DNA of 64,000 nt, from contig JAPXNA010000009.1 in assembly GCA_033808735.1 (NCBI GenBank), forward strand, positions 13,054 through 77,053. The letters run 5' to 3'. A model generated the notes under the pieces. That model saw nothing but the letters and a program-made list of their open reading frames with translations, was not told where the DNA came from and ran no database searches. This document shows, piece by piece, positions 28,701 to 64,000 of this stretch (position 1 is the stretch's first letter; each line of letters starts with the position of its first letter). The translations under genes were made by a program, and so were the position numbers. Origin of the DNA: Fermentimonas sp. GTDB taxonomy: Bacteria; Bacteroidota; Bacteroidia; Bacteroidales; Dysgonomonadaceae.

Positions 28701-28903
28701 TTACCATCATCTGCCCTTGCAGCCAACGCTTGACCCATGGTCAATAACGTCATCACAAACAGCAAAGTAAGGCTTTTTGTGATTGCTGAATTACACGGTT
28801 TTTTTAACCGGCAATTCTCTTTTAATTGTTCATTTTTCATTCGTTTTTTCATTTTAAAATATAAAACAAACCGAAAAGGATGTTGAAAACAACATCGAAA
28901 CAT
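25728..28903 (-). pseudogene. susC: SusC-type TonB-dependent transporter split by a frameshift at a G8 run (ORFs 27602..28903 and 25728..27602)
   Basis: The N-terminal ORF carries the carboxypeptidase-regulatory-like domain and plug (VVAVGYGTMKRSDLTGAVASV, ILKDASATAIYGSRGANGVILVTTKRG). The C-terminal ORF carries the barrel and ends ...SISFGLAIEY. The two frames meet at C8 (27622-27629). Reading with 9 G gives a continuous ...DLSQGGGKTAIPLMAAVLWSPTE..., which matches the paralog ...KGPLFSALQWSP.... Confidence 0.85.
27622..27629 (-). repeat. Homopolymeric G8 (C8 on the + strand) tract at the SusC frameshift site
   Basis: Counted directly: g-cccccccc-t at 27621-27630. Confidence 0.95.
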
Positions 28904-40661: not shown

Positions 40662-40673
40662 TTGTTCGTTTAA

Positions 40674-43763: not shown

Positions 43764-43916
43764 AAGTTTGGCTATTTTAAACAATAGTGAATTTTTAGAA
43801 TTAAATCGTTGCCGTTACCCAACACACAACAAGGTCAAAACGGCAGAAAACCTTAACAATCAATCTCTTTTATTATCCCATAAGCATTTCTCCAATTTCA
43901 TTATTTAAGACGGGGG

Positions 43917-45162: not shown

Positions 45163-46833
45163 TTATTTGATAAAGTTCATCTTTTCTTCAAGTGGAACGT
45201 CAATGTTCTTGTTCAGGATAATATCGCTTTCAGGTGTAGGAACAAACATTCTCCATTCCGCCCAAGAGACGGAAGGAGCGTTAGGCTCTTTCACAGCGTG
45301 ACCGTCAATATTATAGGTGGGATTCTGCACACGCAGTTCAAAGTGATCCTTAACACGGTTCATGCGTTGCATGTCATGATAGCGTGTCACTGAGACGGTC
45401 CACTCCATGGCAACCTCCCACCCATGCTCTTTATAAGCGGCTTCTGCCAATTCGTTTGCACTCATCGTGGCAGGATAAACGTTGGGACTTCCGTCAGCAC
45501 GGGTTGCGCTCGCTCCCTGACCATCGGCACGGTTACGAATAATGTTCAAGTATTCGATAGCCTCCGGGCTCGTCTTACCTGAACGTCCCAGGGCTTCGGC
45601 GTACCACAAGTAAACCTCGCTGATACGAATCATTTGATGGGTCTTCTGACCCCAGCCCCTGAACTGCGAACTCATGGATTGATAAATATTGTACTCCGTC
45701 ACCATATCATTGGTTTCCAGATATTTCCCGCCATAAGGGAAACGATTCCCTTCGGGAACGTTCGGGCTGTACCAAGGATAAGCCGCGTTGTTGGCCTTCA
45801 CGTAGGTAACTACCGGGTAGGTCGTTGTCTTTCGCGGCCCATCGGGCATGTTATACCAAAAAGCGATCTCTCCACGGATATTGTTGTAGCCATCGGCGCA
45901 GTCGGGTATATCGACAATGGCACCACGAGTCGCCTCGCTGCTGTCACCGTCACCATACAAAGCCAAGTTATAGAAAGCACCAAGGATAAGTTCTTTGTTG
46001 TTTCTATCACTCGTGTTCAGTTTTACAGAGTGCAGTTCTGCAAAGTCATCGTAGATAATATAGTTGTACCTTGACCCCAAGCCATCAATTACCTCTTTAG
46101 CCTTGTTTGCCGCCAAAGTGTAATACTCGGCACCCCGGTTCAGGGGCCAACCGGCCATCGTCATGTAAGCGTTTGCCAACAAGGCCTTCGCTGCAGCCGA
46201 GTTAGCGACAACGTTGATACCATTCATGGCCTGAGGAACTGTTGAGTAGTTGTCCGGCAAGTTTTCCGCGGCCGTCAGGTCGGGAATAATCACCTCATCG
46301 TAAATCTGAGCGACCGTAGACAACCCGATGTTGTTGTCAATATTGTTACTAAGGACCATGGGTAAAGGTCCAAACAGCCGAACGAGCTTGAAATAGCTCC
46401 ACCCTCTCCAGAAATGCGCTTGATTCAGGGCGTAATTCAATGTGGCTTCGGATACATCCGGTGCGTTAGCAGCGCCGTCAAGAATGTAGTTGGCCGCTTT
46501 GATAACCAACCACACTTTTTCCCATTCATCAAGCGTGCAACCGTTTCCGGAAGAAACATTATACAAGTCCAATTCCCTGTTCAGGGCTTTGTTGGAAGCG
46601 GGATGGGTAGAGATGTCATCACCCATCTGCCCTTCACAGTTCCGTGTATCATACATTACAGCACGGCCAACCATTCGATACAATACATGTACCGCATCGT
46701 CAACATCACTGGCCTGCTTGAACGCGTCACTTGTCAGCAACTGCCCATTGGGGGTTTCCTTTAAAAAGTCATCGCATGAATAGATGCCCAGCACTAGGAT
46801 TCCAATGACAAATATCTTAAATAAATTCTTCAT
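45163..46833 (-). CDS. susD: SusD/RagB-family lipoprotein (module iii)
   Basis: The track ORF extends to 46866. The likely start is MKNLFKIFVIGILVLGIYSCDD at 46833. HFWRGWSYFKLVRLFGPLPM matches the SusD pattern. Confidence 0.9.
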   Translation of the reverse strand: MKNLFKIFVIGILVLGIYSCDDFLKETPNGQLLTSDAFKQASDVDDAVHVLYRMVGRAVMYDTRNCEGQMGDDISTHPASNKALNRELDLYNVSSGNGCTLDEWEKVWLVIKAANYILDGAANAPDVSEATLNYALNQAHFWRGWSYFKLVRLFGPLPMVLSNNIDNNIGLSTVAQIYDEVIIPDLTAAENLPDNYSTVPQAMNGINVVANSAAAKALLANAYMTMAGWPLNRGAEYYTLAANKAKEVIDGLGSRYNYIIYDDFAELHSVKLNTSDRNNKELILGAFYNLALYGDGDSSEATRGAIVDIPDCADGYNNIRGEIAFWYNMPDGPRKTTTYPVVTYVKANNAAYPWYSPNVPEGNRFPYGGKYLETNDMVTEYNIYQSMSSQFRGWGQKTHQMIRISEVYLWYAEALGRSGKTSPEAIEYLNIIRNRADGQGASATRADGSPNVYPATMSANELAEAAYKEHGWEVAMEWTVSVTRYHDMQRMNRVKDHFELRVQNPTYNIDGHAVKEPNAPSVSWAEWRMFVPTPESDIILNKNIDVPLEEKMNFIK

Positions 46834-46862
46834 ATTATACTCTAATATTTTACGGGTTACCA

Positions 46863-49800
46863 TCAAAAGACAAAACGTACAGAGAAAGTATAGGCTCTCG
46901 GCATGGGCATTGAGCCTCGATCTAGTCCGAAAACAGAGTCCTGAGAGCCTTCATGATTAGTTTCTGAAACCGTTTCAGGATCGAGACCCGTGTAGCCGGT
47001 AATCACGAACAGGTTTTCAATACTGAGCCCCAGGCGTATATCAGCAACTCGCGCCTTTCCCTTCACGAAAGTATAACCCAGTGAAAGGTTCTGTAGTCGC
47101 AAGAATGTTCCATCCTCAAGAAATTGCGTGGAGTTGGGCGTGTTCTGGTTGATAGCGTTTGTTAAACTGGCATAAAGCGCGTTTTTCTTATCAGCCACAT
47201 GTTCCCAGCTACGGTAGTAACCTTCGCGCATGGTGAAAAAACGAGAAGGACCTGACATGGCCGTTCCCACGTAACGACCCACGTTCAAACGATCGAAACG
47301 ACTAGTGAAACGGAACAAAGCGTTGAGATCCCAATCCTTGTACCTTAAGGAGTTGTTCCAACCGAACACCCAGTCAGGAATAGTTTTCCCAATAGCTTTT
47401 CGATTCTCCGTGTTCAACATATTGGTTGTGCCACCATCTTTCGTGTAGAACATGTTAACTCCCTCATCACTGAAACCTGCCCAGTCATACAAATAAAACA
47501 TACCCACGGGAGCATCTTTCTTTAAGATGAAAACACCCCCCGAATACAACGAACCGCGTCCTTCATCAGGAATAATAAAGTCCTCACCGGCCAAGTCTAC
47601 AACCGTGTTTTTATTGTATGCCGCCGTCAAAGTAGATTCCCAAGCGAATTGCTTGTTATCAACGGGGATTACATTCAAAGTGAACTCAGCACCCTCGTTG
47701 CGAATTTCGCCTTGGTTTACCCACACGCTACCACCCCCGTAGTATGTAGGCAGCGATTTCTGGAACAACAGGTCGGTCGTCTTCTTGATATAGAAGTCGG
47801 CTGTCAGGGTCATTCGGCTCTGAAGGAGGGCCAGGTCAACTCCAACGTTATACTGTGCGGTTTTTTCCCACCTCAAATCTGGGTTACTAGCGCCAGCAGG
47901 CCAATAGCCTGTATAACCAGTCTGCGTACCGTAAGATGCACCCCGGTTGTTAAACTCTAAACGAGCGTACGTCTCATACGGGCTAACAGCATGGTTACCA
48001 ATGGTACCATAGCTGGCACGTATCTTCAACTGGTTCACCAAATCTTTATTAAAGAATCTCTCTTCATGGAGGTTCCAGCCCAAACCTATTGAAGGGAAGA
48101 GTGCCCAGCGGTTCTCCTTGCTCAGCTCAGAAGCACCATCAGCCCTCAACGTGGCCGTCAGTAAATACTTTCCCCTGAAGCTATAGTTTACCCGACCTAG
48201 GAACGAACTCAACGCGCTGTTGGAGAAGCTTGAAGAACCATTGATGTTTGTGCCTGCAGCCACGTTCCAATAGGTAGTAGTTTCATTGCTGATACCTTGT
48301 GTGGTAAAGGAGGTGCCGTAACCCTTGCTCTTCGAAAATTCCGCGACGGCGGTAGCGGTCAAATGATGATCCTGGCCACCAAAAAACGTGTCGTACGTTA
48401 AATTATTGATGTTACGCAAGGTAGAAGAATGAGAGTCATAGTTGTTCGCAAAAGCTATGGAGCCGGGAGAAATTGTCGAGGATTCAAATCTTTTATCCCA
48501 GTATGCCCCCTGCGTGTATAAACCTTGGGAAGAGAATGTCAAGCCATCGGCAATCGTGAAAATCACGTCTCCAAACAAGCTGTTTGAATGAGAACGGCGA
48601 TCTGTATAATTTGCCATAACCTCGGCATACGGGTTGTTGTGAATAGAGTTATATGGGTCTAAGCTATACACACCGTTTTCATCCATCAAGTCGAGGGTGG
48701 GTGAATACATGTAGATGTCATTAAATGCATCTGTCGGAACCCTGTTGTGTCCCTTGTTGAAAGATGAGTATAAAAAGCCGTTAAATTTTAGCCAAGGGGC
48801 TATTTGGGTGGTCAAGCCGCCTTTCACGGTGTAATCACGACTTTCTACCGTTACGTACTGGGCCTTATTATCAGACATAGTCCCTGTAACGTAGTACTGC
48901 GTCTTTGGGTTACCACCACTGACATTGATGTTGTATTTTTGCACAAAGCCAGTACGAATCATTTGGTCGAGCCAGTCAACGCCCTTCGTCCCTGCTTTGT
49001 AAGCAGACATATCCGCATCTGAAATGGAGCCGGCACCGTTCACCTCATTGTACGCACGGGCGTACTCGTAGGGGCTCATCAAGTCGGGCTCTTTTGCCAA
49101 AGTATTCCAAACCATACGGGTATCCACGACAACATGTGTGCCTTCCTGTGCCCTTTTGGTCGTTACCAATATAACACCGTTAGCACCCTGAGAGCCATAA
49201 ATAGAGGTTGCGGATGCATCTTTTAAAACCTGGATGCTTTCAATATCATTGGGGTTGCTTGGGGCGGGGGCGCCTATCACGCCGTCAACTACCCAAAGCG
49301 GTTCGTTACTCTTATTGAGGGATGTGGTCCCGCGTACACGAATCTGCATATCTCCAGCCCCGCTTATTGACGTGATGTTCACGCCGGCAACCTTACCTTG
49401 CAACAGACTGGTGACACCTGTTTGCGGAACATTAGCGATTTTACTAGCGGATACGGAACCGATGGCCCCCGTCAAATCAGACTTACGAACCGTACCGTAA
49501 CCCACTACAACAACTTCATCAAGCGCCTTAGTATCTTCCACTAACGTGATGTCAAACGAGGTTCTTCCCGTAGTGCTGACATCTTGCTCCAAATAGCCGA
49601 TGTAGGTGATTCGAATGGTCGCGTTGTTTGCCACACTTAGCGAGAATTTCCCATCCACATCAGTAACGGTACCGTTAGTGGTCCCGATCTCGATGACATT
49701 AGCCCCTATTACAGGCAGGCCGGTGGCATCAACAACGGTTCCCGTAACGGTTTTTCTCTGCTGCATCGCTTCGGCAACGCTGGCAGCCTGAGAATAAGGC

Positions 49801-49934
49801 GTTTCAGCCTGCACGACCTGCACGTGAAAAACGTGCAGAAACAAAAGCAGGAGCGACATCCTCATAGCGATGAGTGTCTTATTACAAAAAATAGTAAAGA
49901 GACGTGCTTTTTGGTCGACTGTTTTACTTTGCAT
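46863..49934 (-). CDS. susC: SusC-type TonB-dependent transporter (module iii)
   Basis: 1023 aa. The first ~130 mature residues are ~80% identical by eye to module ii SusC (TGTVVDATGLPVIGANVIEIGTTNGTVTDVDGKFSL...), and the barrel is much more diverged. Ends ...FSVRFVF. Confidence 0.92.
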   Translation of the reverse strand: MQSKTVDQKARLFTIFCNKTLIAMRMSLLLLFLHVFHVQVVQAETPYSQAASVAEAMQQRKTVTGTVVDATGLPVIGANVIEIGTTNGTVTDVDGKFSLSVANNATIRITYIGYLEQDVSTTGRTSFDITLVEDTKALDEVVVVGYGTVRKSDLTGAIGSVSASKIANVPQTGVTSLLQGKVAGVNITSISGAGDMQIRVRGTTSLNKSNEPLWVVDGVIGAPAPSNPNDIESIQVLKDASATSIYGSQGANGVILVTTKRAQEGTHVVVDTRMVWNTLAKEPDLMSPYEYARAYNEVNGAGSISDADMSAYKAGTKGVDWLDQMIRTGFVQKYNINVSGGNPKTQYYVTGTMSDNKAQYVTVESRDYTVKGGLTTQIAPWLKFNGFLYSSFNKGHNRVPTDAFNDIYMYSPTLDLMDENGVYSLDPYNSIHNNPYAEVMANYTDRRSHSNSLFGDVIFTIADGLTFSSQGLYTQGAYWDKRFESSTISPGSIAFANNYDSHSSTLRNINNLTYDTFFGGQDHHLTATAVAEFSKSKGYGTSFTTQGISNETTTYWNVAAGTNINGSSSFSNSALSSFLGRVNYSFRGKYLLTATLRADGASELSKENRWALFPSIGLGWNLHEERFFNKDLVNQLKIRASYGTIGNHAVSPYETYARLEFNNRGASYGTQTGYTGYWPAGASNPDLRWEKTAQYNVGVDLALLQSRMTLTADFYIKKTTDLLFQKSLPTYYGGGSVWVNQGEIRNEGAEFTLNVIPVDNKQFAWESTLTAAYNKNTVVDLAGEDFIIPDEGRGSLYSGGVFILKKDAPVGMFYLYDWAGFSDEGVNMFYTKDGGTTNMLNTENRKAIGKTIPDWVFGWNNSLRYKDWDLNALFRFTSRFDRLNVGRYVGTAMSGPSRFFTMREGYYRSWEHVADKKNALYASLTNAINQNTPNSTQFLEDGTFLRLQNLSLGYTFVKGKARVADIRLGLSIENLFVITGYTGLDPETVSETNHEGSQDSVFGLDRGSMPMPRAYTFSVRFVF

Positions 49935-50637: not shown

Positions 50638-52089
50638 TTAGTCAAGTCCGGCAACGGCAAAGAACTCCCCTCGCTTCATGAGTTTATAGATATCTTCTCC
50701 CGGGTAAGATTTAAAAAGAATTTGCAGTGTTGCCTCCTTAGGTGAAAGCACGTAAAAACTCCCGTTCATGAAAACGCGCCCCTTATCATCCGCGGCCAAC
50801 GAGTTAATGAACCTGCATGCACGACCTTCATGATCAACGATTTTCCCGTGATCCACCACTTTTTGGTCGAGACCCTCGGTTATTGAAACGCTTCTCAAAT
50901 GGAGGCTTTCGTCGTACCCAACGACGTCAGGATCTCTTTCCCGTTCAAATTCCGCGCCTTTCGTTCGCTCATCCATAAGATCCGCGTATTGAACAAAGTA
51001 AACCCTATCGCCCCCCAATGCCGTATGCAAGAAGGTAGATCCAATGTAGGCTATCGGCTCGAACGCTTCGCCGGATTCAATGTTTTTCGACGGGTCAAAA
51101 ACCCATAACCTCTCATCACCGCCACCCCAGGTCCCCATGGTAAACAGACACTTTTTGTTTCCACTCCCGGGTAATACGTCAGACCACGTCCAAGCACGCT
51201 CCTTCCTGTAGGATTCCTCGGTTACCGGTGTCCCATCAATATACTCCCCGTAGGGCAATACGTCATGGTAGACTTCAATCTTATCCAGGGAGGGGCGGTA
51301 ACAATACAAGTTACCGTTATCATTTTCATAAAAAGGTTGATAAGGACCAGATTTGCTATCATCGTCCAGATGCTGATTCCTTTTCCATAACGTGAACCAA
51401 CAGTTGCCCTCGTGATCGATGAAAAAGGTCTTCGATGCCGCGCTACGTTTTTCTGCCACCAAGCCTAGGTCCCTCATCTCACCCGTCTCTATATCTACGC
51501 TATAAAGATGACTCCCATCAGCCTCTACCAGCTCATCCAAAAAGGGCACCACGAAAACATACAACTTTTTTCTAACCGGGTCGATATTAATCGCGGAGTA
51601 GGTTGAATACCTCGGGCGAATAATCCCGAAGTCCTTAAACTTCCCGGTTTTCATCTCGTATCCCACGGCATGAGCACCCGTGTAGTCTGCAATACCTTTT
51701 GGCCAATAATTAGAGAGATGGGTCGTAAAATAGAGCCACCCATCGAGTTCAACGATCGGGCTATGAATTTTTCCCTGCTGTGAAGGGGTATTCTCTTCGC
51801 CAAGAACCACGGTCATATCTTCCGCCAGTAGGGTGTGGACTTTTGTTTCGGGATCGAACTTGTGAAACCCTGCACCATGGGCAGAGGAGTGGGTAGAGGT
51901 GCCAAAATAACAGTTCCCATCGGAAGCAACGGTCATGCCCTGCCACTGTCCATCCCATTCTTTACAAATCTTGTTCATAGAGACCGAATAAACTTCACAT
52001 ATTTTCTCTCTCTTTTGTTGGGCGTTACATGATGAAACGACGCCATTCAAAACTAAAAAAATCAGCAAGGGTCTAATTACAGGTTTCAT
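50638..52089 (-). CDS. Secreted hypothetical protein, probable beta-propeller
   Basis: 483 aa with a signal peptide. Recurrent blade-like strings (DGNCYFGT, DGWLYFTT, KLYVFVV, EGNCWFTL, GNLYCYRP, DRVYFVQ, GRVFMNG). No family recognised. Confidence 0.6.
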   Translation of the reverse strand: MKPVIRPLLIFLVLNGVVSSCNAQQKREKICEVYSVSMNKICKEWDGQWQGMTVASDGNCYFGTSTHSSAHGAGFHKFDPETKVHTLLAEDMTVVLGEENTPSQQGKIHSPIVELDGWLYFTTHLSNYWPKGIADYTGAHAVGYEMKTGKFKDFGIIRPRYSTYSAINIDPVRKKLYVFVVPFLDELVEADGSHLYSVDIETGEMRDLGLVAEKRSAASKTFFIDHEGNCWFTLWKRNQHLDDDSKSGPYQPFYENDNGNLYCYRPSLDKIEVYHDVLPYGEYIDGTPVTEESYRKERAWTWSDVLPGSGNKKCLFTMGTWGGGDERLWVFDPSKNIESGEAFEPIAYIGSTFLHTALGGDRVYFVQYADLMDERTKGAEFERERDPDVVGYDESLHLRSVSITEGLDQKVVDHGKIVDHEGRACRFINSLAADDKGRVFMNGSFYVLSPKEATLQILFKSYPGEDIYKLMKRGEFFAVAGLD

Positions 52090-55035: not shown

Positions 55036-56376
55036 TCATGTCGTCAACTCTTTTTGGATTTGCTCCAAGGACTTGTTCTTCATTTCCGGAAGTTTCAAGG
55101 CGAAAACAAAGCTTAAAGCCATCATAACCGCGAAAAAGCCGAATATAACGGCACCACCTGTTCCTATGAAAACGGGGAACATCCAAGTCAATATAGCTGT
55201 CCAGGACCAATGTGTCATGCTACCAAGCACTTGCCCTTTTGAGCGAACTTTAGTTGGGAACACTTCGGAAATAACAACCCATATGGTGGCCCCCAGGGAA
55301 ATAGCGAAAAACGCGATGAAGCCCATCAAGCATACGAGCATATAGTACCCGGAAACAGCGTTCGTGGTAAATCCGTAAGCCACTAACGACAGGGCAATCG
55401 TCATACCCACCGAACCGATGTAAAGCAACTTTTTTCTCCCCACTTTGTCGATTAACACCATCCCAATCATCGTGAACACTAAGTTTGTGAGTCCAATGAT
55501 TATTGATTGTAGCATGGCCGAATCACGGAACAGCCCAGACATTTCAAAGATACGGGGAGCGTAGTACAGCACGACGTTAATCCCAGATAGTTGATTAAAG
55601 GTCGCAATTAAGAACGCGTAGAGAATAGGTTTTCTATATTTTTTCTGGAACAGTTTCCCGGCATCGTCGGTACTTGAAACCAAAGACAATTTAATCTCCT
55701 CGAGTTCCTTACCGGCGTTGATTTCATCCACTTTTTTCAACACGGTTTCCGCTTCACTTTCCCTCCCTTCTTTGACCAACCACCTGGGACTTTCAGGGAT
55801 AGTGAACAGGAGGATTCCGAATAATAGTGCCGGTAAAGCTAAAATCCCCAACATCCAGCGCCAATCATCAGGAATACCATGTAAAGAGTAATTGGAAAGG
55901 TAGGCTAAGACGATTCCCAGTACAATATTAAATTGAAAGAAAGCGACGAAACGTCCACGCCAATGAGAAGGGGATATCTCTGCTATATACATGGGACCCA
56001 CGACTGATGAAGCACCGACCGCTATCCCACCTAAAAACCTGAAAAAAACGAAAGAGTACCAATTGATGATAAGCGCGGTTCCAAGCGCGGAGAAGAAATA
56101 TAGGAACGCGATTACTTTCAACGCTTTAAGACGGCCAAACCGCTCAACCGGTTTGCTGCAAAAAAAGGCTCCTACAATCGTACCGATAAGAGCAATGGCA
56201 ATGGTAAAGCCATGTGCGAAATTCGACAGTTCGTAAATTTGTTGAACGGCTTTTTCAGCTCCCGAAATGACGGCGGTATCGAAACCGAAGAGCAACCCTC
56301 CTAGGGATGCGACGAAAGCGATGTAGAACACGTAAGGCTTAACTGAGTCACCTTGAGTGGTTTGTTTTGTTTTCAT
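55036..56376 (-). CDS. MFS sugar-porter family transporter (sugar:H+ symporter type)
   Basis: 446 aa with 12 hydrophobic segments. Sugar-porter signatures VERFGRLK, IPESPRWLVKEGR and PEMKNKSLEQIQ. Confidence 0.88.
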   Translation of the reverse strand: MKTKQTTQGDSVKPYVFYIAFVASLGGLLFGFDTAVISGAEKAVQQIYELSNFAHGFTIAIALIGTIVGAFFCSKPVERFGRLKALKVIAFLYFFSALGTALIINWYSFVFFRFLGGIAVGASSVVGPMYIAEISPSHWRGRFVAFFQFNIVLGIVLAYLSNYSLHGIPDDWRWMLGILALPALLFGILLFTIPESPRWLVKEGRESEAETVLKKVDEINAGKELEEIKLSLVSSTDDAGKLFQKKYRKPILYAFLIATFNQLSGINVVLYYAPRIFEMSGLFRDSAMLQSIIIGLTNLVFTMIGMVLIDKVGRKKLLYIGSVGMTIALSLVAYGFTTNAVSGYYMLVCLMGFIAFFAISLGATIWVVISEVFPTKVRSKGQVLGSMTHWSWTAILTWMFPVFIGTGGAVIFGFFAVMMALSFVFALKLPEMKNKSLEQIQKELTT

Positions 56377-56446
56377 ACGATTATTTTATTTTTCACATTT
56401 CGGTGTATGGAACCTTTGATGATTAAAATAATCATGTAGGTTTCAT
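56369..56446 (-). repeat. Leader-repeat A element plus palindromic spacer, containing the MFS transporter start codon and filling the GRE-MFS gap
   Basis: gttttcatacgattattttatttttcacatttcggtgtatggaacctttgatgattaaaataatcatgtaggtttcat. Confidence 0.9.
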
Positions 56447-56458
56447 AAAACTAATTAG

Positions 56459-58528
56459 TTAGAGTCCGAATTCAATTCTATTAATAATGTGATCTTGGTA
56501 ACATTCGTCAAGTTCTACGAAATAGCCGCTCCATCCCCAAACGCGCACGATTAGTTGCTTGTATCTATCCGGGTGTTTTTTCGCGTCGAGTAATTTTTCC
56601 AGGCTTACCGTGTTTAACTGCAATTGATGTCCTCCCAGTGTTATAAAGGTTTTCACCAACGCCCCCAGTTTCTCAATACTTTCGTCATCGCGGAAGACAT
56701 TTTGATCAAACTCCAACGTTAACGGTCCCCCGTTTATAACATTCAACAGGTCAGGTTTAGTAAATGATTTTATCACCGAGATAGGGCCTTTTTGTTTCAT
56801 GAAAAGCGATGGGGAATAGTTTGCCGGGATCATCTCCTCTTTTTTACGGCCATCGGGGGTAGCACCCAGGCTTGAAGCGTGCCACACGTAATACATGGCC
56901 GTACCTGTGCCCGCACGATATATCCCGCCCCGTTCGTTTCGTTTTGAGCGCAGTGTCTTATCAAAGGAGTTTAAAAGATCAATGGCTATGGCATCAACGT
57001 AATCGTTATCTTGACCCATTTTCGGGCTCTCTTCCCTAAGAAGTTGGAGTAGTTCCGGGTTGTTCTCAAAGTTATTTTCGAGGGCCTCTTTCAGGGTTTG
57101 TTGATCGATGCTCTTCTCTTCAAAATAATACTTCTTGAGGGCTGCTAACGAGTCTGCCGCCGTGGCGATTCCCGTACCGTGAATGCCGTAATTATTGTAC
57201 GTGGCGCCTAATGAAATATCTCTTGCACGTTCTATAGAACCATCCATCAATAGTGACATCATGGGTGATGGGATGATATACAGGTTCTTATGTTTTTCAC
57301 AAATTTCGTCCGCCTTTTCCTGCATTTTTTGTTCCACGATATCGTAAAAAGCCTCGTAGCTTACGCATTCACCTAGTTTGGGTAAGCTATCGTTTACGCA
57401 CTGGGGCAACGATAGACCATCTATATTTGGAATGTCTAAAGCATACTTGGGAATGATGAATTCCCAACACGCGGCAACGACGTAGTCGTACGCGTGATCT
57501 TTTTTGTACCCTTTTTTCATCAGCCCGGGGATAACAATATCATCGTTGCTGTACTGAGGGAATCCAAGACCTTTTCGAGTTAGCCTTGAACCTAAAATAT
57601 ATACTTCATCGGGGGTTTCTTTGTCAACACGGATGTTAATCTTGGGATCAATCAATGCCAGTTCGTAGCTAGCTAGCAGGCACATTTTTGAAAGATCGTT
57701 GAACATGTATTGCCCGTCTAAGCCGCGTCCCCCTAACACGATGCTTTGCCCGTTATCTCCCTGCTGCATTCCGGGATATAGGTCACTATCCTTGTTACAT
57801 GAAAGGAAGAACTCTTCTACCAAGTCAAACGCTTCGCTTTCTGTAATAACCCCCGTTTCTATATCTTTGGTGAAGTAGGGATACATGTATTGATCAAAAC
57901 GACCCAACGTGTTATGGTAGTTTCCCGCTGCCCACAAGGAGAAGTGCAAAACGCGTAATAATTGCAGCGCTTCCCTAAAGCTCTTTGCACCATTACATTG
58001 GATTGCTTTAAGAACATCTGCCGTGTCGGTATATCCTTTAGAGCGTGCATACTCTTCATACCTCCCGATTAACGCTTGGATCGCTTCAATACAGAGAAGG
58101 GTAGCTTTTAAAAAGGTCACTCCCTCTTGGTCAACGCTTTGATCGTTTAGTTTCTTTTCAATCTCTTTTTTCCTCGCGTTCAACCCTACTTTAATGGTTG
58201 TTTCGTAATCGGGTGAAAGGTTGCTGATCGTCCCTCGCTCATGAATGTAGTGTGTCCCTTTTATTTGTTCCCACTCGCTCGCCGTGAAAATATCGGGAAT
58301 TTCGCTTACGGTTCTCGTGAAAACAATGCTCTCGTTAGGAAGGATAACCGGTACTTCCTCGTTAAGAACGGCGGCAAGGCATAAAGCAGAGCGTTTCACG
58401 GGGTCCACATTGTTTTTCGCGAACGATTCATTGATGGTACTAATGCCAACCTCTTGACTACTCCTCCTGAACTGGTGATGTTTTTTATCCAGAAGGTATT
58501 CCTTAAGTTCTTTTATTGACGGTTTCAT
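56459..58528 (-). CDS. Glycyl-radical enzyme (PFL-like fold), short form, substrate unknown
   Basis: 689 aa. C-terminal glycyl-radical motif VRVWGWSGYFVEL (Gly665). Cys loop YDYVVAACWEF (Cys354-x-Glu356) preceded by GFPQYSNDD. The Cys-to-Gly spacing of ~311 aa is typical of GREs. There is a single Cys, not the CC of pyruvate formate-lyase. Confidence 0.88.
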   Translation of the reverse strand: MKPSIKELKEYLLDKKHHQFRRSSQEVGISTINESFAKNNVDPVKRSALCLAAVLNEEVPVILPNESIVFTRTVSEIPDIFTASEWEQIKGTHYIHERGTISNLSPDYETTIKVGLNARKKEIEKKLNDQSVDQEGVTFLKATLLCIEAIQALIGRYEEYARSKGYTDTADVLKAIQCNGAKSFREALQLLRVLHFSLWAAGNYHNTLGRFDQYMYPYFTKDIETGVITESEAFDLVEEFFLSCNKDSDLYPGMQQGDNGQSIVLGGRGLDGQYMFNDLSKMCLLASYELALIDPKINIRVDKETPDEVYILGSRLTRKGLGFPQYSNDDIVIPGLMKKGYKKDHAYDYVVAACWEFIIPKYALDIPNIDGLSLPQCVNDSLPKLGECVSYEAFYDIVEQKMQEKADEICEKHKNLYIIPSPMMSLLMDGSIERARDISLGATYNNYGIHGTGIATAADSLAALKKYYFEEKSIDQQTLKEALENNFENNPELLQLLREESPKMGQDNDYVDAIAIDLLNSFDKTLRSKRNERGGIYRAGTGTAMYYVWHASSLGATPDGRKKEEMIPANYSPSLFMKQKGPISVIKSFTKPDLLNVINGGPLTLEFDQNVFRDDESIEKLGALVKTFITLGGHQLQLNTVSLEKLLDAKKHPDRYKQLIVRVWGWSGYFVELDECYQDHIINRIEFGL

Positions 58529-59298
58529 AAGACTACTGTTTTTATGTTTAATTTTTCGAAGACGGTGTGATGTATTTCGGGTTTTCGTGTTGGATCAAAT
58601 AGTGGCGTGAATGTTTGTCCAATCATCGGGTACTTTGCTCCAGCCACTTGATTGTACGGCAACAATTCAACGCGTATCATTGATTTCGCGTTTTGAATTA
58701 GTTCGGCAATATTAAGCATATTTTCTTCACTATCGTTAACGCCGGGAATTAACGGTATCCTAATGATAAATTTCGTGGTTGAGGAGCACAAATAATCGAG
58801 GTTCTCTAAAATCAAATCATTTTCTACCCCCGTGTATTTTTTATGTACAACAGGGTCGGTATGCTTTACATCCATCATAACCAAATCGACTTTTTGGGTA
58901 ACCCTTTTGAAAATATCAGTCGAAGCATACCCGCTTGTTTCGATGGCTGTATGAACAGTGGGGGCGATTAAATCCAACACGGCGATTAAAAAATCTGATT
59001 GGAGCAATGGTTCGCCGCCCGTGAAGGTAACACCCCCCTGATTCATAGCGTATATATCCTTGTTCCTCAATATTTGGCTAGCCAGTTCTTCGGGTGAAAT
59101 TTCATAACCCGATGTAACTATCTGCCCGTTTTTCTTCTTCATCTTTTGAGGTTTCGGGGATATGCCCTCGGGATTATGGCACCATGTGCAACGCAACGGA
59201 CAGCCTTTCAAAAAAATAGTTGTTCGTATTCCAGGACCATCGTGGATTGCAAATTCCTCGATGCTGAATATCATTCCGTTTTTCATTACCTGTGGCAT
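58525..59298 (-). CDS. Glycyl-radical-enzyme activating enzyme (radical SAM, PflA-like minimal form)
   Basis: DGPGIRTTIFLKGCPLRCTWCHNPEG (CX3CX2C) and GGVTFTGGEPLL SAM motif. Only 4 Cys in total, so there is no auxiliary ferredoxin-like insert. Its stop overlaps the GRE start (ATGA). The track ORF starts at a GTG at 59313, with ATG candidates at 59298 and 59286. Confidence 0.88.
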   Translation of the reverse strand: MPQVMKNGMIFSIEEFAIHDGPGIRTTIFLKGCPLRCTWCHNPEGISPKPQKMKKKNGQIVTSGYEISPEELASQILRNKDIYAMNQGGVTFTGGEPLLQSDFLIAVLDLIAPTVHTAIETSGYASTDIFKRVTQKVDLVMMDVKHTDPVVHKKYTGVENDLILENLDYLCSSTTKFIIRIPLIPGVNDSEENMLNIAELIQNAKSMIRVELLPYNQVAGAKYPMIGQTFTPLFDPTRKPEIHHTVFEKLNIKTVVL

Positions 59299-59302
59299 TC
59301 TT

Positions 59303-61570
59303 CTACCTTTCACTGAATATTATGTCAAAATCCGCGAGGATAGTTTTTTTGGATTGAAAAGTAACCTTAAGAAGATCACCCTGTTCCGTTACTTCGTATT
59401 TGGCGTCTTTACACGTTAATTGATTGAACGCGTAGTCATTTGGCACGTGTATCCATATGGATAGGGGAAACGAATTGATTAACTCGATGGTACCCGATAA
59501 CGTTTTTTTATGGTCATTCCATTCGAGTTTTGACAACTCCATCCCGGTTTGAGCGATATGGCGGTCACTTCCAACCCATTGGGGGCAATCCTTAACGGGA
59601 TGGAGGGTCACCAAACGCACCCCGTGGGCAGGAACATCTACTGACAATTTGCCGTCTGAAGGGGTGTAATTGTACGGTTTGCTTTCCCAAAACTCCAATC
59701 CCATGTATTCGTTGTCGGGTATCCCCAGTTCTCCCGTGGTGGTAGAGACCGTCTGGGGTTGGTCTTCCCAGTTAAAGAATGACACCACGTTATATGCACC
59801 GAGCTGTTCATTTTGTACGGAGAGATTCCACACCTGCAGCATATCGAAATGCGGGTAGAGGTTTGCCGGTCGCACCTGTGCCACCGGAAGGGTTTGTTGC
59901 AGGATTTTCATCTTCTCCTCTGCCAGCCCCGCGAGTTTATCCCCGAAAAAGGTCAGCTGCCCTGGCAAAGCGACTATGGTCGCGGAAGTTCTCGCCTCTT
60001 CCAATGGTAGATCCCGTACCAGCAGCGTGTCCGGGTCGGCATACATAACGATATTGTGCGTGAATGCCTGGTTTAACAAGCAGCTTGCCTGATTCAACAC
60101 CCCGCTCCATTTAACGGGTTGATTCGCGTTCACGATATCCGCACCAAGCCGTGAGGCATCCGCGTAGCGAGCTTCCGGTCCCGATGAATGTCCCTGGCAA
60201 GCCAGGAGCACCCTGTCTTCGCCTATTCCTTCCCGAAACGCTTGAACGCAGAGTTCAAACGGGTTAGGGCAAGAGGGGTCGCTGAACAGCTCCTTTATTT
60301 CAGGTCGTTCGTACAGGTGCGCGCAATAACCATGACCTCTGCCCGACATGCCATCGATCTTGAAGAACTCGTATCCCCACTCTCGTGATGCAACCCGATG
60401 GATCTCTTTCAGGTGTTCTCTTGCCTCTTTAACGGTGGGGTCAAGGGTATACTTGCCATTCCACGATGAAACCGGTGTCCCGTCTTTCTTGTGCAAAAAC
60501 CAATGTTTATGTTTTTCATAAAACGAGTGGTTTCCCGTACCGAAGGGTGCCATCCATAACCCTGGGCGAAAGCCGAGCTTCCGGATCTCATCGGCTAAAT
60601 TTTTCATTCCTTTAGGGAATTGCTTTTCGTTCACCTCGAGGTTCATGTTGTGAAAACCACTCACCGGGAGCTTGTCCGAGTTCCCTTGCCAGGACTCGAT
60701 AGACCAGAATTCGCAGCCAAAGGGTTGTAGGTACTTCTTCCCGATTCTCGCTTCGTTTAGGTTGTCTTCAGCCGTTGCCGTATCAAAATAGGTATTCCAA
60801 GACATCCATCCGGTAGGTGCGACCGGGCAACGGTCGCGGTTAATGGGGCTGTAGTAAGGCACGTAGCGGTTTTGGAAGTAGTGCTCTTCCAGGATGAAAG
60901 TAAAGGTTGCCTCGGGAGCCTGTTCGATATTCCCGCTCAATTGAAAAGCGAATGTTCCGTTTTCATCGTGTTTGAGCGTTGTATCGCTGGCGGTCAGCCG
61001 GAGTAGAGCGTCATTACCCGGGGAAAACAGCGAGTCGTTTAGCAACGAGTCGGCTCGTCCACAAGCTAATTGAAGTACGTTTTCTCCGGCTATCGGATTG
61101 ATACGACAAGGGAAAGCGTCCGCGTGAAAAGCGATAGTACCCTCGAAAGAGAATCGCCCTTTAAACCTTTGGGCTGTTCTGTGGTAAAACAGCAGTTCGA
61201 GCCCGGTTCCGGATTGATTTAGCGTCCAGTAACCCTGGACATTACCATAGGGATCAATCAAGGTGTTGCGATCAGCAGCCCCATCTCTTGCCCTCCCTAC
61301 AGACCATTCCGCTTCGTCGGAGATGAAACTTAGCTTACCGCTAACAACCGTGTGTTGATTTCGCAAGGTAAGCCGCGTGGATTCCGGGTTGAAATCTATT
61401 TCCCATGGACCGTGTTGAAAAACTTTACCCTCCTCTTTACCTTTTTGCCCGTCATCGTTTTTGGGTACTTCGTTTGAAAAGGCTTGTTCAATATTTGCCA
61501 ATCCGCCCAATGATGTAAGCGAGACGGTTCCGATCGTCGCTTTTTTAATGAATTTTCTTCGTTCTATCAT
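59303..61570 (-). CDS. Twin-arginine exported clan GH-D (GH27/GH36-like) alpha-galactosidase-family enzyme
   Basis: 755 aa. TAT signal ERRKFIKKATIGTV. PTGWMSWNTY (compare GWNSWN of GH27), KQFPKGMKNL, RPGLWMAPFG and EWGYEFFKIDGM (KxD nucleophile region). Confidence 0.7.
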   Translation of the reverse strand: MIERRKFIKKATIGTVSLTSLGGLANIEQAFSNEVPKNDDGQKGKEEGKVFQHGPWEIDFNPESTRLTLRNQHTVVSGKLSFISDEAEWSVGRARDGAADRNTLIDPYGNVQGYWTLNQSGTGLELLFYHRTAQRFKGRFSFEGTIAFHADAFPCRINPIAGENVLQLACGRADSLLNDSLFSPGNDALLRLTASDTTLKHDENGTFAFQLSGNIEQAPEATFTFILEEHYFQNRYVPYYSPINRDRCPVAPTGWMSWNTYFDTATAEDNLNEARIGKKYLQPFGCEFWSIESWQGNSDKLPVSGFHNMNLEVNEKQFPKGMKNLADEIRKLGFRPGLWMAPFGTGNHSFYEKHKHWFLHKKDGTPVSSWNGKYTLDPTVKEAREHLKEIHRVASREWGYEFFKIDGMSGRGHGYCAHLYERPEIKELFSDPSCPNPFELCVQAFREGIGEDRVLLACQGHSSGPEARYADASRLGADIVNANQPVKWSGVLNQASCLLNQAFTHNIVMYADPDTLLVRDLPLEEARTSATIVALPGQLTFFGDKLAGLAEEKMKILQQTLPVAQVRPANLYPHFDMLQVWNLSVQNEQLGAYNVVSFFNWEDQPQTVSTTTGELGIPDNEYMGLEFWESKPYNYTPSDGKLSVDVPAHGVRLVTLHPVKDCPQWVGSDRHIAQTGMELSKLEWNDHKKTLSGTIELINSFPLSIWIHVPNDYAFNQLTCKDAKYEVTEQGDLLKVTFQSKKTILADFDIIFSER

Positions 61571-61613: not shown

Positions 61614-64000
61614 TTACTTAGCGTCGAAAATCTCGTAGACAATCGCGTAAGTTCCATTTTTAACCTTGTTGAAGCGAAACCCTTCCACCTGCTTGATATC
61701 ATGTCCACCCTTGAGCTCGATGTTTTCAATTATCTTTTCATCAAGCACGTCACCATTCAGGTTTTTCAGGGTCACGTGCAAGTTTACTTTTCGTTCTTCT
61801 CCCAAGTGATTTATTACAGGAGTGATGGTATCATCGGGGCCGTAAACCACGTCAACGTTATGGCTACCGGCCCATGTCCTTTGTGTAATCATTTTCTTGA
61901 TATAAAAAGCCAGTTTGGGATGGCGTAGGTTATCGATCAGGGGTTTTTGATAGGTTCCCATGTTTGCACCTCCATGCAGGCAGCACCATGAGAATCCATC
62001 GTATCCAAGCAGTATCTGTTTCTTCATTGATTCCCAGGCGGCAAATGCCTGCCATGCTTGGCTGGCCCGCCACTCGTCGGTTGTTAACCGTCGCCCGATG
62101 CTCCCCTCATCGTACTCCCACTCGTATGATTGCAATAAATACCATGGTTTGCCTTTTGATAATTCCCAGTTAGGTTGTGCCGCGGACTCTTCATGTTCAA
62201 AGTTGAAATAAGCTTTTTCCTTTGCCGCGAGGCATGTAGCAGCCCATGCATTGGGTGCTTCCCTGATATTTGTCCAGGGTGCACCGTATCCCGAGTAAGC
62301 ATCTTGGTTCCCGCGTGTGACCTGAGGGGCCATGTACTCTGGGACAGGGGTTATGGGGTTGCCCTTGTAATCTATCGTGCCGTCGTAGTTCCCGTAATGG
62401 GTATGCATCCAGTGTGTGGTGGGTGTGATTAGCCTGCTCTGATCGTGGGATGCTATGGTCTGGTATATTTTTCTCACGTAGTCATGCGTATATGAAATGT
62501 CATACTCCTTGAATATGGTTGGATGATTACCCGCTTCCCACATCACGATGCTGGGGTGGTTAAACACCTGCTTCATGTATTTGGGGTATCCCACGAAGTC
62601 AACAGTCCAAGGTTCTGCTGTTCTTATCCAGGCCGCGGTTGACCAGATTAGGTATATGCCCATCTGGTCGGCCAGCTCGGCGTAACGCGGGTCGTTAATA
62701 CCATCGGGCACCCATGCTTCCGAATGCACGTGCATCCGCAATAAATTGCCACCCATTTTCTTGATCATGAGCATTTCTTCGGCAACGGTTTCATCGGGAG
62801 CGCAGCGGTTATGCTTCGCGATCGTTTCTATCGGTACTCTATATCCCATGATTTGTGCGCCGTTAAGTATTTCGGGCTTCCCGTTGATCAACAACTGCCC
62901 ATTTTCCTGTTCAATTTTGCGGATTCCCGTTGTTGTGACGAAATCGTCAATCGGTTTGCCATCCTTATCCCTTAAGATAAACTCCACCTTGTATAAGTTT
63001 GGCCTGTTTGAGCTCCACAGTTTTGGCGAGGGGATGGGGCATTCTAGGGTGTACTCGTTATTCACGCTAGGGCGGACGTCTACTTCCTTTTTAAAAGAAG
63101 CCACTTGCTCCCCCTCTTCGGGGAACCAGGGATAGTAATTTATCTCAATGCTTCCCTGACATAGATTCAGCCCTGAGGATTGCACGTTGACCTTATGCAT
63201 TTGCGTAGCGGTTTCACCTATCTCTTTGGTAACAATTTCAGCATCTTTTATCATGCATTGTGAGGAGAGGATTAGCTTTGTTCTTCCCAAGAACCACCCG
63301 ATGTTTCTATCGGTAGGGGTATGGGACATTGGAGATTTAGCATAAAAAGGTTTCACCCTTATGGCAATAAGGTTTTCCTGATTTTTTTCGAGGTAATCCG
63401 AAACATCAAACTCGCGTGGGTAGCGGTCGCGGATAACTGCTACAACTTCGTTATTTATCCACACCTCGCCACCTGGGTCAAGGGTTTCCAATGTCAACGT
63501 GGCCCGTTCATACTCTCCCACGAAAATTTTCTTGCGCAAGTAAAGGTCTTCATCTTTTTCTCTAACTCCACCATGGACCGCGGGTAGGTTTGTCTCTATC
63601 CAGTGCTGGTCGTTAAAATCGATTGTTTGCCAATTGGATACATTCGGCTTTTCTTCAAAATCTTCATCTATAACCACTTGTGAGACGTATGGCGATCCGA
63701 CGTCTCCTGTCAACAAATGGTTAAAAATGAAGATGTCGTCAACCTGGGTTTTCCCTTCCGAGTCAATGCTGAAATTAGTGATGGTAGAGGATTTACCTTT
63801 CACCATTGGAATGTAATATTGCAGTAGTGTCCCGTTAGCGTAAAGGTTAAACCGTTTTCGCGTTAAGTCTCCTTCGATTACTATAGTGATCCATTCGGTT
63901 TTATCAATCCGGTTTTTCACCCGTTCCGTTCCCGACGTGCTACTTATTTCTCCTTCCTTTATCTCGACGGAAATCATGGGAGTCTCCCCATCGCTGAACG
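61614..64000 (-). CDS. GH2-like glycosidase, 5' end outside the window; acid/base position reads Asn-His instead of Asn-Glu
   Basis: The reading frame stays open to position 64000, so the gene is partial. GH2-type domain order: DFNDQHWIETNLP sugar-binding, SPKLWSSNRPNLY Ig-like, GGNLLRMHVHSE and FNHPSIVMWEAGNHP TIM barrel. N-terminal extra LamG-like segment. Confidence 0.75.
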   Translation of the reverse strand, partial: FSDGETPMISVEIKEGEISSTSGTERVKNRIDKTEWITIVIEGDLTRKRFNLYANGTLLQYYIPMVKGKSSTITNFSIDSEGKTQVDDIFIFNHLLTGDVGSPYVSQVVIDEDFEEKPNVSNWQTIDFNDQHWIETNLPAVHGGVREKDEDLYLRKKIFVGEYERATLTLETLDPGGEVWINNEVVAVIRDRYPREFDVSDYLEKNQENLIAIRVKPFYAKSPMSHTPTDRNIGWFLGRTKLILSSQCMIKDAEIVTKEIGETATQMHKVNVQSSGLNLCQGSIEINYYPWFPEEGEQVASFKKEVDVRPSVNNEYTLECPIPSPKLWSSNRPNLYKVEFILRDKDGKPIDDFVTTTGIRKIEQENGQLLINGKPEILNGAQIMGYRVPIETIAKHNRCAPDETVAEEMLMIKKMGGNLLRMHVHSEAWVPDGINDPRYAELADQMGIYLIWSTAAWIRTAEPWTVDFVGYPKYMKQVFNHPSIVMWEAGNHPTIFKEYDISYTHDYVRKIYQTIASHDQSRLITPTTHWMHTHYGNYDGTIDYKGNPITPVPEYMAPQVTRGNQDAYSGYGAPWTNIREAPNAWAATCLAAKEKAYFNFEHEESAAQPNWELSKGKPWYLLQSYEWEYDEGSIGRRLTTDEWRASQAWQAFAAWESMKKQILLGYDGFSWCCLHGGANMGTYQKPLIDNLRHPKLAFYIKKMITQRTWAGSHNVDVVYGPDDTITPVINHLGEERKVNLHVTLKNLNGDVLDEKIIENIELKGGHDIKQVEGFRFNKVKNGTYAIVYEIFDAK

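Follow-up and report, generated by a model that had tools for sequence, protein, structure and literature searches.

A short glycyl-radical enzyme family beside sugar importers and glycosidases, with a candidate role in monosaccharide breakdown

Why should a glycyl-radical enzyme (GRE) be encoded between exported glycosidases and a sugar porter? The question is raised by a 64,000-nucleotide stretch of Fermentimonas sp. DNA (contig JAPXNA010000009.1), here called the window and taken at its full length, whose minus strand carries a short GRE of 689 amino acids (aa) and its radical S-adenosylmethionine (SAM) activase in just such a setting. We put the probability at roughly two in three that this locus is a minimal glycyl-radical system, made of the GRE and a single-cluster activase, wired to a sugar importer within a polysaccharide-utilisation locus (PUL) region. 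The enzyme itself is most likely a Cys-x-Glu (CxE) radical C-O lyase or dehydratase that would act on an imported, unphosphorylated monosaccharide. The superfamily is known; what is new is a distinct compact GRE subfamily and the genomic setting in which it occurs.

The locus and its short glycyl-radical enzyme

A first-pass annotation of this DNA had proposed a five-gene order running from a GH2-like glycosidase (GH, glycoside hydrolase) to a sugar porter of the major facilitator superfamily (MFS), and all five open reading frames (ORFs) were recovered in that order and place. Translation likewise verified its two motifs, RVWGWSG and AACWEF, and the GH2-like frame does run open to the end of the window. 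The features, all on the minus strand, are as follows.

61614..64000, minus: GH2-like glycosidase gene; still open at base 63998, with no in-frame stop
59303..61570, minus: 755-aa GH36-like (clan GH-D) gene with a twin-arginine signal; translation, Pfam and PDB match
58525..59298, minus: radical-SAM GRE activase, 257 aa (262 aa from an alternative GTG at 59313); TIGR02494
59179..59202, minus: activase motif CPLRCTWC (CX3CX2C); translation
56459..58528, minus: 689-aa short GRE; PF02901 and PF01228
57458..57475, minus: Cys loop AACWEF (Cys354, Glu356; CxE motif); translation
56525..56545, minus: glycyl radical loop RVWGWSG (Gly665); translation
55036..56376, minus: sugar-porter MFS protein, putative monosaccharide:H+ symporter; Sugar_tr and TIGR00879
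52166..54841, minus: 891-aa exported protein of a neighbouring PUL module; not a conserved GRE partner
45163..49934, minus: SusC/SusD pair (TonB receptor, Plug, CarboxypepD_reg; SusD-like_3, SusD_RagB), giving the PUL context

The tight junctions that had been described also held up. The activase stop and the GRE start overlap as ATGA. The GH-D gene ends in a TAG that is 4 nt ahead of the activase ATG (59298) and would overlap the start if the alternative GTG (59313) were used. The activase is thus predicted to be dedicated to the GRE and translationally coupled to it via the ATGA overlap. The remaining gaps are 43 nt between the GH2-like and GH-D genes, 82 nt between the GRE and the MFS gene and 194 nt between the MFS gene and the next. 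As the annotation had remarked, no aldolase, kinase or dehydrogenase is adjacent to the GRE in the window.

Alignment and modelling both place the 689-aa protein as a genuine GRE, with a ten-stranded barrel like that of pyruvate formate-lyase (PFL) and, by alignment, a catalytic cysteine on the opposing loop. It scores 317 bits for PF02901 and 69 bits for PF01228 (cut-off 22), and the glycyl radical motif RVxG[FWY] is present at its C-terminus (RVWGWSGYFVELDECYQDHIINR); the sequence downstream of RVWGWSG fits the GRE fingerprint RVxG[FWY]x6-8[IL]x4Qx2[IV]x2R. Cys354 aligns with C433 of glycerol dehydratase (GD) and C431 of PflD, and Glu356 with GD E435 and PflD E433. An AlphaFold2 model built from 77 family sequences reached pLDDT 92 and pTM 0.92, and in Foldseek it gave TM-scores on the query (TMq) of 0.77-0.88 to the 50 best-matching GRE chains listed. 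Against GD, propanediol dehydratase (PD), CutC, HypD, PflD, YbiW, HplG and the N-methyl-hydroxyproline dehydratases, TMq is 0.86-0.88 at 21-26% identity, so the predicted fold is equidistant from all solved eliminase and isomerase GREs.

The shortness of the protein, already noticed in the first pass, is real: 689 aa compare with 759-1150 aa for nearly all full-length GRE chains matched, the exceptions being two entries labelled 'formate acetyltransferase' (687 and 739 aa) that match weakly (E ~1e-8). The deficit comes mainly from about 55 aa missing near the N-terminus and several loop deletions; in comparison with PflD and YbiW of E. coli, loops ahead of Q261 and following the Cys loop are shorter.

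The activase scores 242 bits for TIGR02494 (cut-off 174) and has only the CX3CX2C cluster motif, with no auxiliary ferredoxin-like insert. The activases compared include those of the window (58525-59298, minus strand), L001:9219-10004 and L094:14196-15047. In the alignment, the Bacteroidales activases (window, B. fragilis, Alistipes and the related locus L097) have lost the cysteine-rich auxiliary insert altogether, those of Kiritimatiellia and some Clostridia keep two ferredoxin-like CX2CX2CX3C motifs, and other Clostridia keep only part.

The porter scores 361 bits for Sugar_tr and 344 bits for TIGR00879 (cut-off 238). Upstream, the 755-aa protein has weak Melibiase (31.5 bits) and Melibiase_C (24 bits) matches and an N-terminal twin-arginine motif, ERRKFIKK; its best PDB match is the Thermotoga GH36 alpha-galactosidase 1zy9 (7e-15), with GH27 beta-L-arabinopyranosidases weaker, and it is probably a periplasmic exo-glycosidase. 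The GH2-like protein has Glyco_hydro_2, _2_C and _2_N domains and matches LacZ-type structures at 1e-17; distant GH2 genes also lie near the GRE in four related loci (L015, L018, L027 and L098).

A family outside the characterised classes

We searched 1.8 billion cluster representatives for relatives. Proteins of about 640-700 aa score above about 450 bits and align from residue 1; lower scores grade into ordinary GREs of 750-850 aa. Measured over 77 family sequences down to 42% identity, with the window protein as reference, the invariant positions are N103, H195, W199, Y204, H205, R210, D212, Q255-Q261 (QQGDNGQ), N277, N298, R300, FPQY-ND (323-329), AACWE (352-356), P360, N368, N446, H450, R538, M545, Y547, N570, NGGPLT-E (599-606), HQ-Q-N (634-639) and RVWGWSG (R662 to G668). 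The signature blocks also take in NxGxH (446-450), RxGxGxAMxY (538-547) and NGGPLTxE (599-606). Of the 57 signature positions, nearly all intact members, drawn from several phyla, share 45-57, with lower counts in a few that are degenerate or truncated; E. coli YbiW and PflD share 21-23 and other GREs 17-35. A sister group of 680-745 aa has only a partial signature (GD(T/N)GQ, CWE, RVWGF). By these measures the short GREs, of about 640-700 aa, make up what we would call a distinct and sharply bounded family.

Its members are spread widely. Within Bacteroidales they occur in Fermentimonas (including a 98%-identical GRE labelled Fermentimonas sp.), Bacteroides fragilis (GRE WP_195595275.1), B. 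hominis, Parabacteroides, Alistipes and Cryptobacteroides; within Lachnospiraceae in Acetatifactor, [Clostridium] symbiosum and C. transplantifaecale; and further in Oscillospiraceae, Ructibacterium, Thermoguttaceae, Treponema, Victivallales/Lentisphaeria and Kiritimatiellia. The B. fragilis cluster alone comprises 1,914 sequences, which carry the annotation 'pyruvate formate lyase family protein'. Five relatives (P0144, P0154, P0155, P0157 and P0167) have lost the catalytic cysteine, the glycyl motif or both, P0144 reading AAGSC and VCVRDWRA; relatives of this type appear to be degenerate GRE paralogues and presumably non-catalytic.

Clustering with a characterised GRE family would have told against the first-pass annotation, and the comparisons show none: every NCBIfam equivalog model is 2-4 fold under its cut-off, and the structural distances are even. 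The window protein falls outside TIGR01774, the PFL2/glycerol dehydratase subfamily (320 bits, cut-off 678), the HypD model NF043068, which is the second-best NCBIfam match (288 bits, cut-off 1100), the PflD-type model NF007437 (265 bits, cut-off 1109), the sulfopropanediol dehydratase models (240-254 bits, cut-off 1000), the CutC model (225 bits, cut-off 1050) and the PFL model TIGR01255 (80 bits, cut-off 994). In the comparison with solved structures, glycerol dehydratase 1r8w ranks first (2e-75), PflD, propanediol dehydratase and HypD come next, and PFL structures match only at 1e-19 to 1e-20.

These numbers bear directly on the source annotations, 'pyruvate formate lyase family protein' and 'formate C-acetyltransferase', under which the protein would be a pyruvate or 2-ketoacid formate-lyase of central fermentation merely placed in a glycan locus. 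We find that hardly credible. The protein has a single cysteine in its AACWEF loop, C354-W355-E356 is invariant in the family, and the vicinal Cys-Cys of PFL is absent, in line with the earlier assignment to the Cys-x-Glu type; TIGR01255 is far under its cut-off, PFL structures trail the eliminases (1e-75) by a wide distance, and the conserved linkage is to sugar transporters rather than fermentation genes. The name 'pyruvate formate-lyase', given to the family throughout the databases, is almost certainly wrong.

The CxE motif is common to all GRE 1,2-eliminases and isomerases, its glutamate being hydrogen-bonded to a substrate hydroxyl (2026 GRE review), so the invariant CxE loop puts the short GRE mechanistically among the eliminases and isomerases. 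In GD, His164 is the acid that protonates the leaving hydroxyl (2026 GRE review); the position of GD His164 and PD His166, which is also histidine in PflD and YbiW, is an invariant asparagine, Asn103, in the short-GRE family. Together with the unique polar QQGDNGQ loop, Asn103 suggests a leaving-group activation unlike that of the GD and YbiW models.

Conserved neighbours and the proposed chemistry

To place the enzyme among its neighbours, we predicted ORFs in every locus, assigned them to seed families by BLAST and scored features within 10 kb, in 36 family loci (14 non-redundant Bacteroidota among them) and in 20 control loci of ordinary PFL2-type GREs taken through the same scan. Thirteen of the 14 Bacteroidota loci have the MFS gene, 13 an activase, 12 at least one of GH127, GH51-like, GH-D and GH2, and seven a SusC. 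A sugar-porter MFS gene is present in 14/36 family loci and 0/20 controls (Fisher p = 9e-4), and one of the same four glycosidase families in 19/36 and 1/20 (Fisher p = 3e-4). The MFS orthologues beside the GRE are 60-82% identical in 13 of the 14 Bacteroidota loci and 43-45% identical in Kiritimatiellia, and porter and enzyme diverge in parallel (MFS 82, 76 and 44% against GRE 79, 66 and 49%). Representative arrangements are listed here.

B. fragilis: SusD and SusC leftward; hybrid two-component system (HTCS), activase, GRE, MFS, aldose 1-epimerase and GH127 rightward
P0021 lineage: GntR leftward; activase, GRE, MFS, GH127, epimerase, GH127 and SusC rightward
P0016 lineage (Bacteroides sp.): SusC and SusD, then further along activase, GRE, MFS, GH127 and epimerase
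L097 (79% GRE identity): SusD, WbsX-like, 752-aa Melibiase-like, BNR, activase, GRE, MFS
L098 and L099 (Bacteroidales variants): GH2, sulfatase, epimerase; GH51-like fused to a 3-keto-disaccharide-hydrolase-like domain
L015: bona fide GH36 and GH2
Kiritimatiellia: MFS, GRE, (x), activase; MFS orthologous to that of Bacteroidota
Clostridia: CUT2 ATP-binding cassette (ABC) importer, LacI, GH51, raffinose-synthase-like GH36, GH2, GH28-like, GH78 or GH127

The core of activase, GRE and monosaccharide transporter is conserved. It had been thought conceivable that the tie to transporter and glycosidases was peculiar to one genome; it recurs across Bacteroidota, Clostridia and Kiritimatiellia. The more specific expectation of a conserved GH-D/GH2/MFS linkage stood in part, since the link to a transporter and glycosidases is kept and the GH-D/GH2 pair proved to be one of several interchangeable sets, the commonest being GH127 with an aldose 1-epimerase. 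In L097, the closest non-identical relative that we looked at, a presumed orthologue of the 755-aa protein, a 752-aa Melibiase counterpart, lies upstream of the GRE. In 6 of the 14 non-redundant Bacteroidota loci the MFS gene has a GalM-type aldose 1-epimerase gene after it, which points to a reducing sugar used as one anomer.

Could the adjacency be accidental, with the GRE serving a role unrelated to glycosidases and transporter? The glycosidase families do vary by locus, and four loci (L092, L026, L030 and L042) have no transporter or glycosidase nearby. Still, the MFS-GRE pair is kept across phyla and diverges in parallel, in several family loci adjoining genes share their start and stop codons or are separated by 3-13 nt, and the enrichment over control GRE loci is significant, so we consider mere coincidence very improbable.

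Several neighbours were considered as partners and set aside. The xylose isomerase and xylulokinase beside L098 resemble a xylose operon of their own, and the MBOAT, alanine racemase and MazF toxin genes that precede the C. symbiosum cluster are unrelated; two further candidates, the aldo-keto reductase of L021 and the cupin-like protein of L050, were each seen once only. Nor could specificity be read from two other sources. One Clostridial ABC binding protein resembles ribose and monosaccharide binders, which speaks for a sugar of this size class although the similarity is only generic, and the GH127 genes matched only the 'aceric acid hydrolase' model (342-444 bits, cut-off 950).

The same neighbourhoods speak to the idea that the GRE is a small-diol dehydratase, for glycerol, 1,2-propanediol or a similar polyol, with the glycosidases just supplying fucose- or rhamnose-derived diols. 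The best sequence and structure matches (1r8w at 2e-75, and the propanediol dehydratases) are enzymes of this kind, three related loci (L021, L063 and L047) carry a GH78 rhamnosidase gene, and the aldo-keto reductase noted above follows a Clostridial cluster. Identity, however, is only about 26%, the TIGR01774 score is less than half its cut-off, and the acid catalyst of GD and PD is replaced by invariant Asn103. Microcompartment shell genes are found in 0/36 family loci against 12/20 controls (Fisher p = 2e-7), a comparison that is indicative only, as GD itself is not always encapsulated; no aldehyde dehydrogenase was seen among the annotated neighbours, the gene kept beside the GRE encodes a monosaccharide importer, and aldose epimerase genes are common. 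We therefore regard a diol substrate as quite improbable, somewhat less so than coincidence.

Our preferred reading, a radical C-O lyase or dehydratase on an imported monosaccharide, can be followed step by step. Exported exo-glycosidases would free a neutral monosaccharide in the periplasm, in the window through the twin-arginine GH36-like and the GH2-like proteins and in relatives through GH127, GH51-like and GH36/27-like enzymes, and the sugar-porter MFS protein would bring it in unphosphorylated. The activase would place a radical on Gly665, to be relayed to Cys354, and the resulting thiyl radical would take a hydrogen from a carbinol carbon of the sugar. Glu356 of the CxE motif would deprotonate the hydroxyl of the abstracted carbon, and the ketyl radical so formed would eject the oxygen substituent of the adjacent carbon. 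Ejection of a hydroxyl would amount to a dehydration and give a deoxy-keto sugar or deoxy-lactone; ejection of the ring oxygen would be a ring-opening isomerisation as in YbiW/PflD; in either case Cys354 would give the hydrogen back. This scheme adapts what is established for GRE eliminases and isomerases, in which the thiyl radical takes the carbinol hydrogen, the glutamate handles the hydroxyl and cleavage takes place at the vicinal C-O (or C-N, C-S) bond (2026 GRE review). Plausible outcomes would include C1/C2 dehydration to a 2-deoxy-lactone, in-ring dehydration to a deoxy-keto sugar and YbiW-like scission of the ring C-O bond; for the last, C5H2-O5 of a pentopyranose is chemically equivalent to C1H2-O5 of a 1,5-anhydro-alditol.

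That the sugar should be neutral, reducing and unphosphorylated is suggested by the importer partner, the frequent GalM mutarotases and the lack of an adjacent kinase or phosphotransferase system (PTS) and of a microcompartment; with no kinase or PTS gene adjacent, the unphosphorylated form is probably the substrate. As to which sugar, GH127 releases beta-L-arabinofuranose and GH51 alpha-L-arabinofuranose, GH27/36 enzymes release beta-L-arabinopyranose or alpha-D-galactose, and GH2 enzymes release beta-D-galactose or alpha-L-arabinopyranose. These are families that release ring and anomeric forms of L-arabinose and of the isosteric D-galactose series, and on that ground a substrate of L-arabino/D-galacto configuration, such as L-arabinose, is our leading guess, though a tentative one that we would bet against if pressed.

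A different class of substrate deserves mention here, namely an ether or anhydro sugar. The GRE would then be a non-phosphorylated counterpart of the YbiW/PflD 'anhydroglycolysis' and would open C-O-C bonds beyond the reach of hydrolases, with 1,5-anhydro-alditols, 3,6-anhydro-galactose and O-methyl sugars as candidates. The attraction is that it would explain the need for a radical enzyme. No GREs other than YbiW and PflD are known to act on sugars; both share the same CxE logic (2026 GRE review) and are among the top Foldseek matches. In the related Bacteroidales locus L099, a PUL (L099:3408-8683) has GH31/GH141 genes on one side and the GRE-MFS pair on the other, and encodes between them a B12-binding protein, a protein with a Met_synt_B12 domain and a methyltransferase of the URO-D/MtaA-like kind. 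This set resembles a corrinoid-dependent demethylase system within a glycan locus and may serve O-methylated sugars. Its position beside the GRE hints at methylated sugars, and GH127 includes 3,6-anhydro-D-galactosidases. Yet the PflD-type equivalog score is about a quarter of its cut-off, the conserved histidine of YbiW/PflD is asparagine in the short GRE, the PTS, FSA-type aldolase and sugar phosphatase of the E. coli loci are missing from the window and from the neighbours annotated in related loci, the aldose 1-epimerase genes favour a reducing sugar with a free anomeric centre, and many hosts are gut or rumen bacteria, in which red-algal anhydro-galactose is unlikely to be met. We hold an anhydro- or methyl-sugar substrate to be unlikely, though the least so of the four alternatives.

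Several points weigh against the monosaccharide lyase that we favour. The glycosidases vary between loci, and in 17 of the 36 family loci all four scored families are absent; there are also loci (Lentisphaerae L092, Thermoguttaceae L026/L030) with no transporter or activase nearby, and L099 has no adjacent activase. Across the family loci we found no conserved downstream enzyme that would identify the product. The Asn103 replacement may mean that the leaving-group chemistry differs from the GD and YbiW models on which the scheme is drawn, and the residues called active-site were placed by alignment rather than by model coordinates. Substrate, product and activity are predictions from sequence, and regiochemistry and product fate are reasoned by analogy. 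Ordinary routes for L-arabinose and D-galactose exist, which leaves the need for radical chemistry unexplained, and B. fragilis is classically regarded as arabinose-negative, being listed in standard identification tables as unable to ferment the free sugar. Co-transcription of the cassette, finally, is deduced from gene spacing. A scan for sigma-70 promoters and terminators returned counts indistinguishable from those of shuffled sequence, this promoter type being the wrong one for Bacteroidota, and a scan for the Bacteroidetes box TAnnTTTG gave one plausible site, TAACTTTG, 65 nt upstream of the start of the 891-aa gene only. The route first sketched for this locus, from glycosidases through the MFS protein to the GRE, is supported to the extent that sequence analysis allows, and its co-transcription and chemistry are still inferred.

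Window context, significance and known systems

The 64-kb window is a Bacteroidales PUL region, one long minus-strand run of genes with three SusC/SusD pairs and many glycosidases and phosphodiesterases. A second SusC/SusD pair lies at 39198-43784, and the GH2-like and GH36-like genes lie upstream. All 35 of the non-overlapping ORFs of at least 150 aa are on the minus strand, nine plus-strand ones all falling inside longer minus-strand ORFs, and GC skew is negative throughout.

The 891-aa gene downstream of the porter belongs to a separate module: its homologues occur without a GRE, and in two loci examined they lie in the order SusC, SusD, a protein of 890 aa and one of about 600 aa. The protein has no Pfam, NCBIfam or PDB sequence match. 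Its AlphaFold2 model (pLDDT 78) has an alpha/beta domain at the N-terminus, a mutarotase-like domain at the C-terminus and Ig-like sandwiches as well, Foldseek matches being confined to Ig-like and mutarotase-like domains with TM < 0.25; the family is widespread in Bacteroidota and, on the model, is possibly an undescribed glycosidase family. An exported 483-aa protein at 50638-52089 (minus strand) is likewise without Pfam, NCBIfam or PDB sequence match.

Elsewhere in the window, a SusC-like receptor at 25728-28903 (minus strand) is split into ORFs of 433 aa (CarboxypepD_reg, Plug) and 624 aa (barrel) that overlap by one base; this is a frameshift, reflecting either a pseudogene or a sequencing error. 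Phosphodiesterase-type genes are unusually concentrated, lying at 12032-13717, 16609-17727, 20857-21624 and 32710-33780 (minus strand), comprising one type I phosphodiesterase with PA14, two metallophosphoesterases and one GDPD. They sit among alpha-mannosidase genes, two of GH92 (3916-8378) and one of GH38 (1211-3808), a LacZ-type GH2 gene and a GH109-like oxidoreductase gene, which suggests a PUL for a phosphodiester glycan, for example phosphomannan, a teichoic-acid-like polymer or a glycosyl-inositol-phosphoryl lipid head group.

GREs have repeatedly turned out to be behind unseen gut chemistry, from choline to trimethylamine, hydroxyproline and isethionate to H2S through to anhydroglucitol, and the short-GRE family is abundant and extends over glycan-degrading anaerobes of six or more lineages at phylum or class level. 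The June 2026 review by Drennan and colleagues, which sets out every characterised PFL-like GRE class, includes none from Bacteroides, in a PUL or on a free sugar, and entire GRE clades are still without validation according to the same review. A search of full-text literature, with subscription-only papers outside it, found no published characterisation of the short-GRE family or of any GRE tied to a PUL. The earlier impression that no characterised GRE has this size and context therefore stands as to size and context, with the qualification that GREs acting on sugar phosphates, YbiW and PflD, are already known (2026 GRE review). That the short GREs are the first to act directly on a free, unphosphorylated monosaccharide freed by glycan-degrading machinery is a proposition that we judge to be evenly balanced.

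If a free sugar is indeed processed, a radical step would be added to the textbook PUL scheme, and sugar use by some anaerobes without a standard pathway would be explained. Radical dehydration or ring-opening of an L-arabino/D-galacto sugar, for example, would amount to a new oxygen-sensitive sugar catabolism built into PULs and present in B. fragilis and many gut, rumen and digester anaerobes. The compact GRE and its single-cluster activase might also form a pair that is easier to reconstitute than the usual ones, and the sharp signature makes the family easy to track in metagenomes.

How, then, does the system compare with those already known? The usual last elements of a PUL are an importer and conventional sugar enzymes of the cytoplasm, and we know of no PUL described with a radical enzyme cassette as the cytoplasmic step. 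As in other PULs, the GRE cassette of the window and its relatives is flanked by SusC/SusD, by proteins that bind glycans at the surface, by exported glycosidases and by regulators of the HTCS, GntR or LacI type. PflB (1H16) shares the superfamily, the glycyl loop and the kind of activase, that of the Bacteroidales short GREs being PflA-like with a single cluster; PFL has a vicinal Cys-Cys and lacks CxE, and the window GRE is the reverse. HypD (6VXC) is a CxE eliminase as well, acting on a five-membered ring alcohol and abundant in gut Bacteroidales, but it is only 23% identical, and the window has a sugar transporter and glycosidases instead of its P5C reductase partner.

Closer still in sequence and structure are the B12-independent GD of C. 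butyricum (1R8W) and PD (5I2G), which share the CxE motif and eliminase-type architecture (TMq 0.86-0.88). The window GRE is 26% identical to them and eight residues shorter in the region after the Cys loop; its setting has no microcompartment and, among the annotated neighbours, no aldehyde-processing gene, and its activase lacks the auxiliary-cluster insert.

YbiW and PflD (8ID7, 8ID0, 8YJO) offer a further parallel. These GRE isomerases, C-O lyases of 1,5-anhydroglucitol-6-phosphate and 1,5-anhydromannitol-6-phosphate, act on carbohydrate (2026 GRE review), and the window GRE has the same barrel, glycyl loop and Cys-x-Glu loop (TMq 0.87-0.88). It is about 75-120 aa shorter, at 24-26% identity, has Asn103 in place of their conserved histidine and carries the QQGDNGQ loop unique to its family. 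The E. coli PflD and YbiW loci carry frwCBD/ptsA and fsaA/ybiV; in the window and among the annotated neighbours of related loci we found neither a PTS importer nor an FSA-type aldolase nor a sugar phosphatase, and the short GREs have instead an MFS or ABC importer and glycosidases. This exchange of partners is why we think the substrate of the short GRE is probably unphosphorylated.

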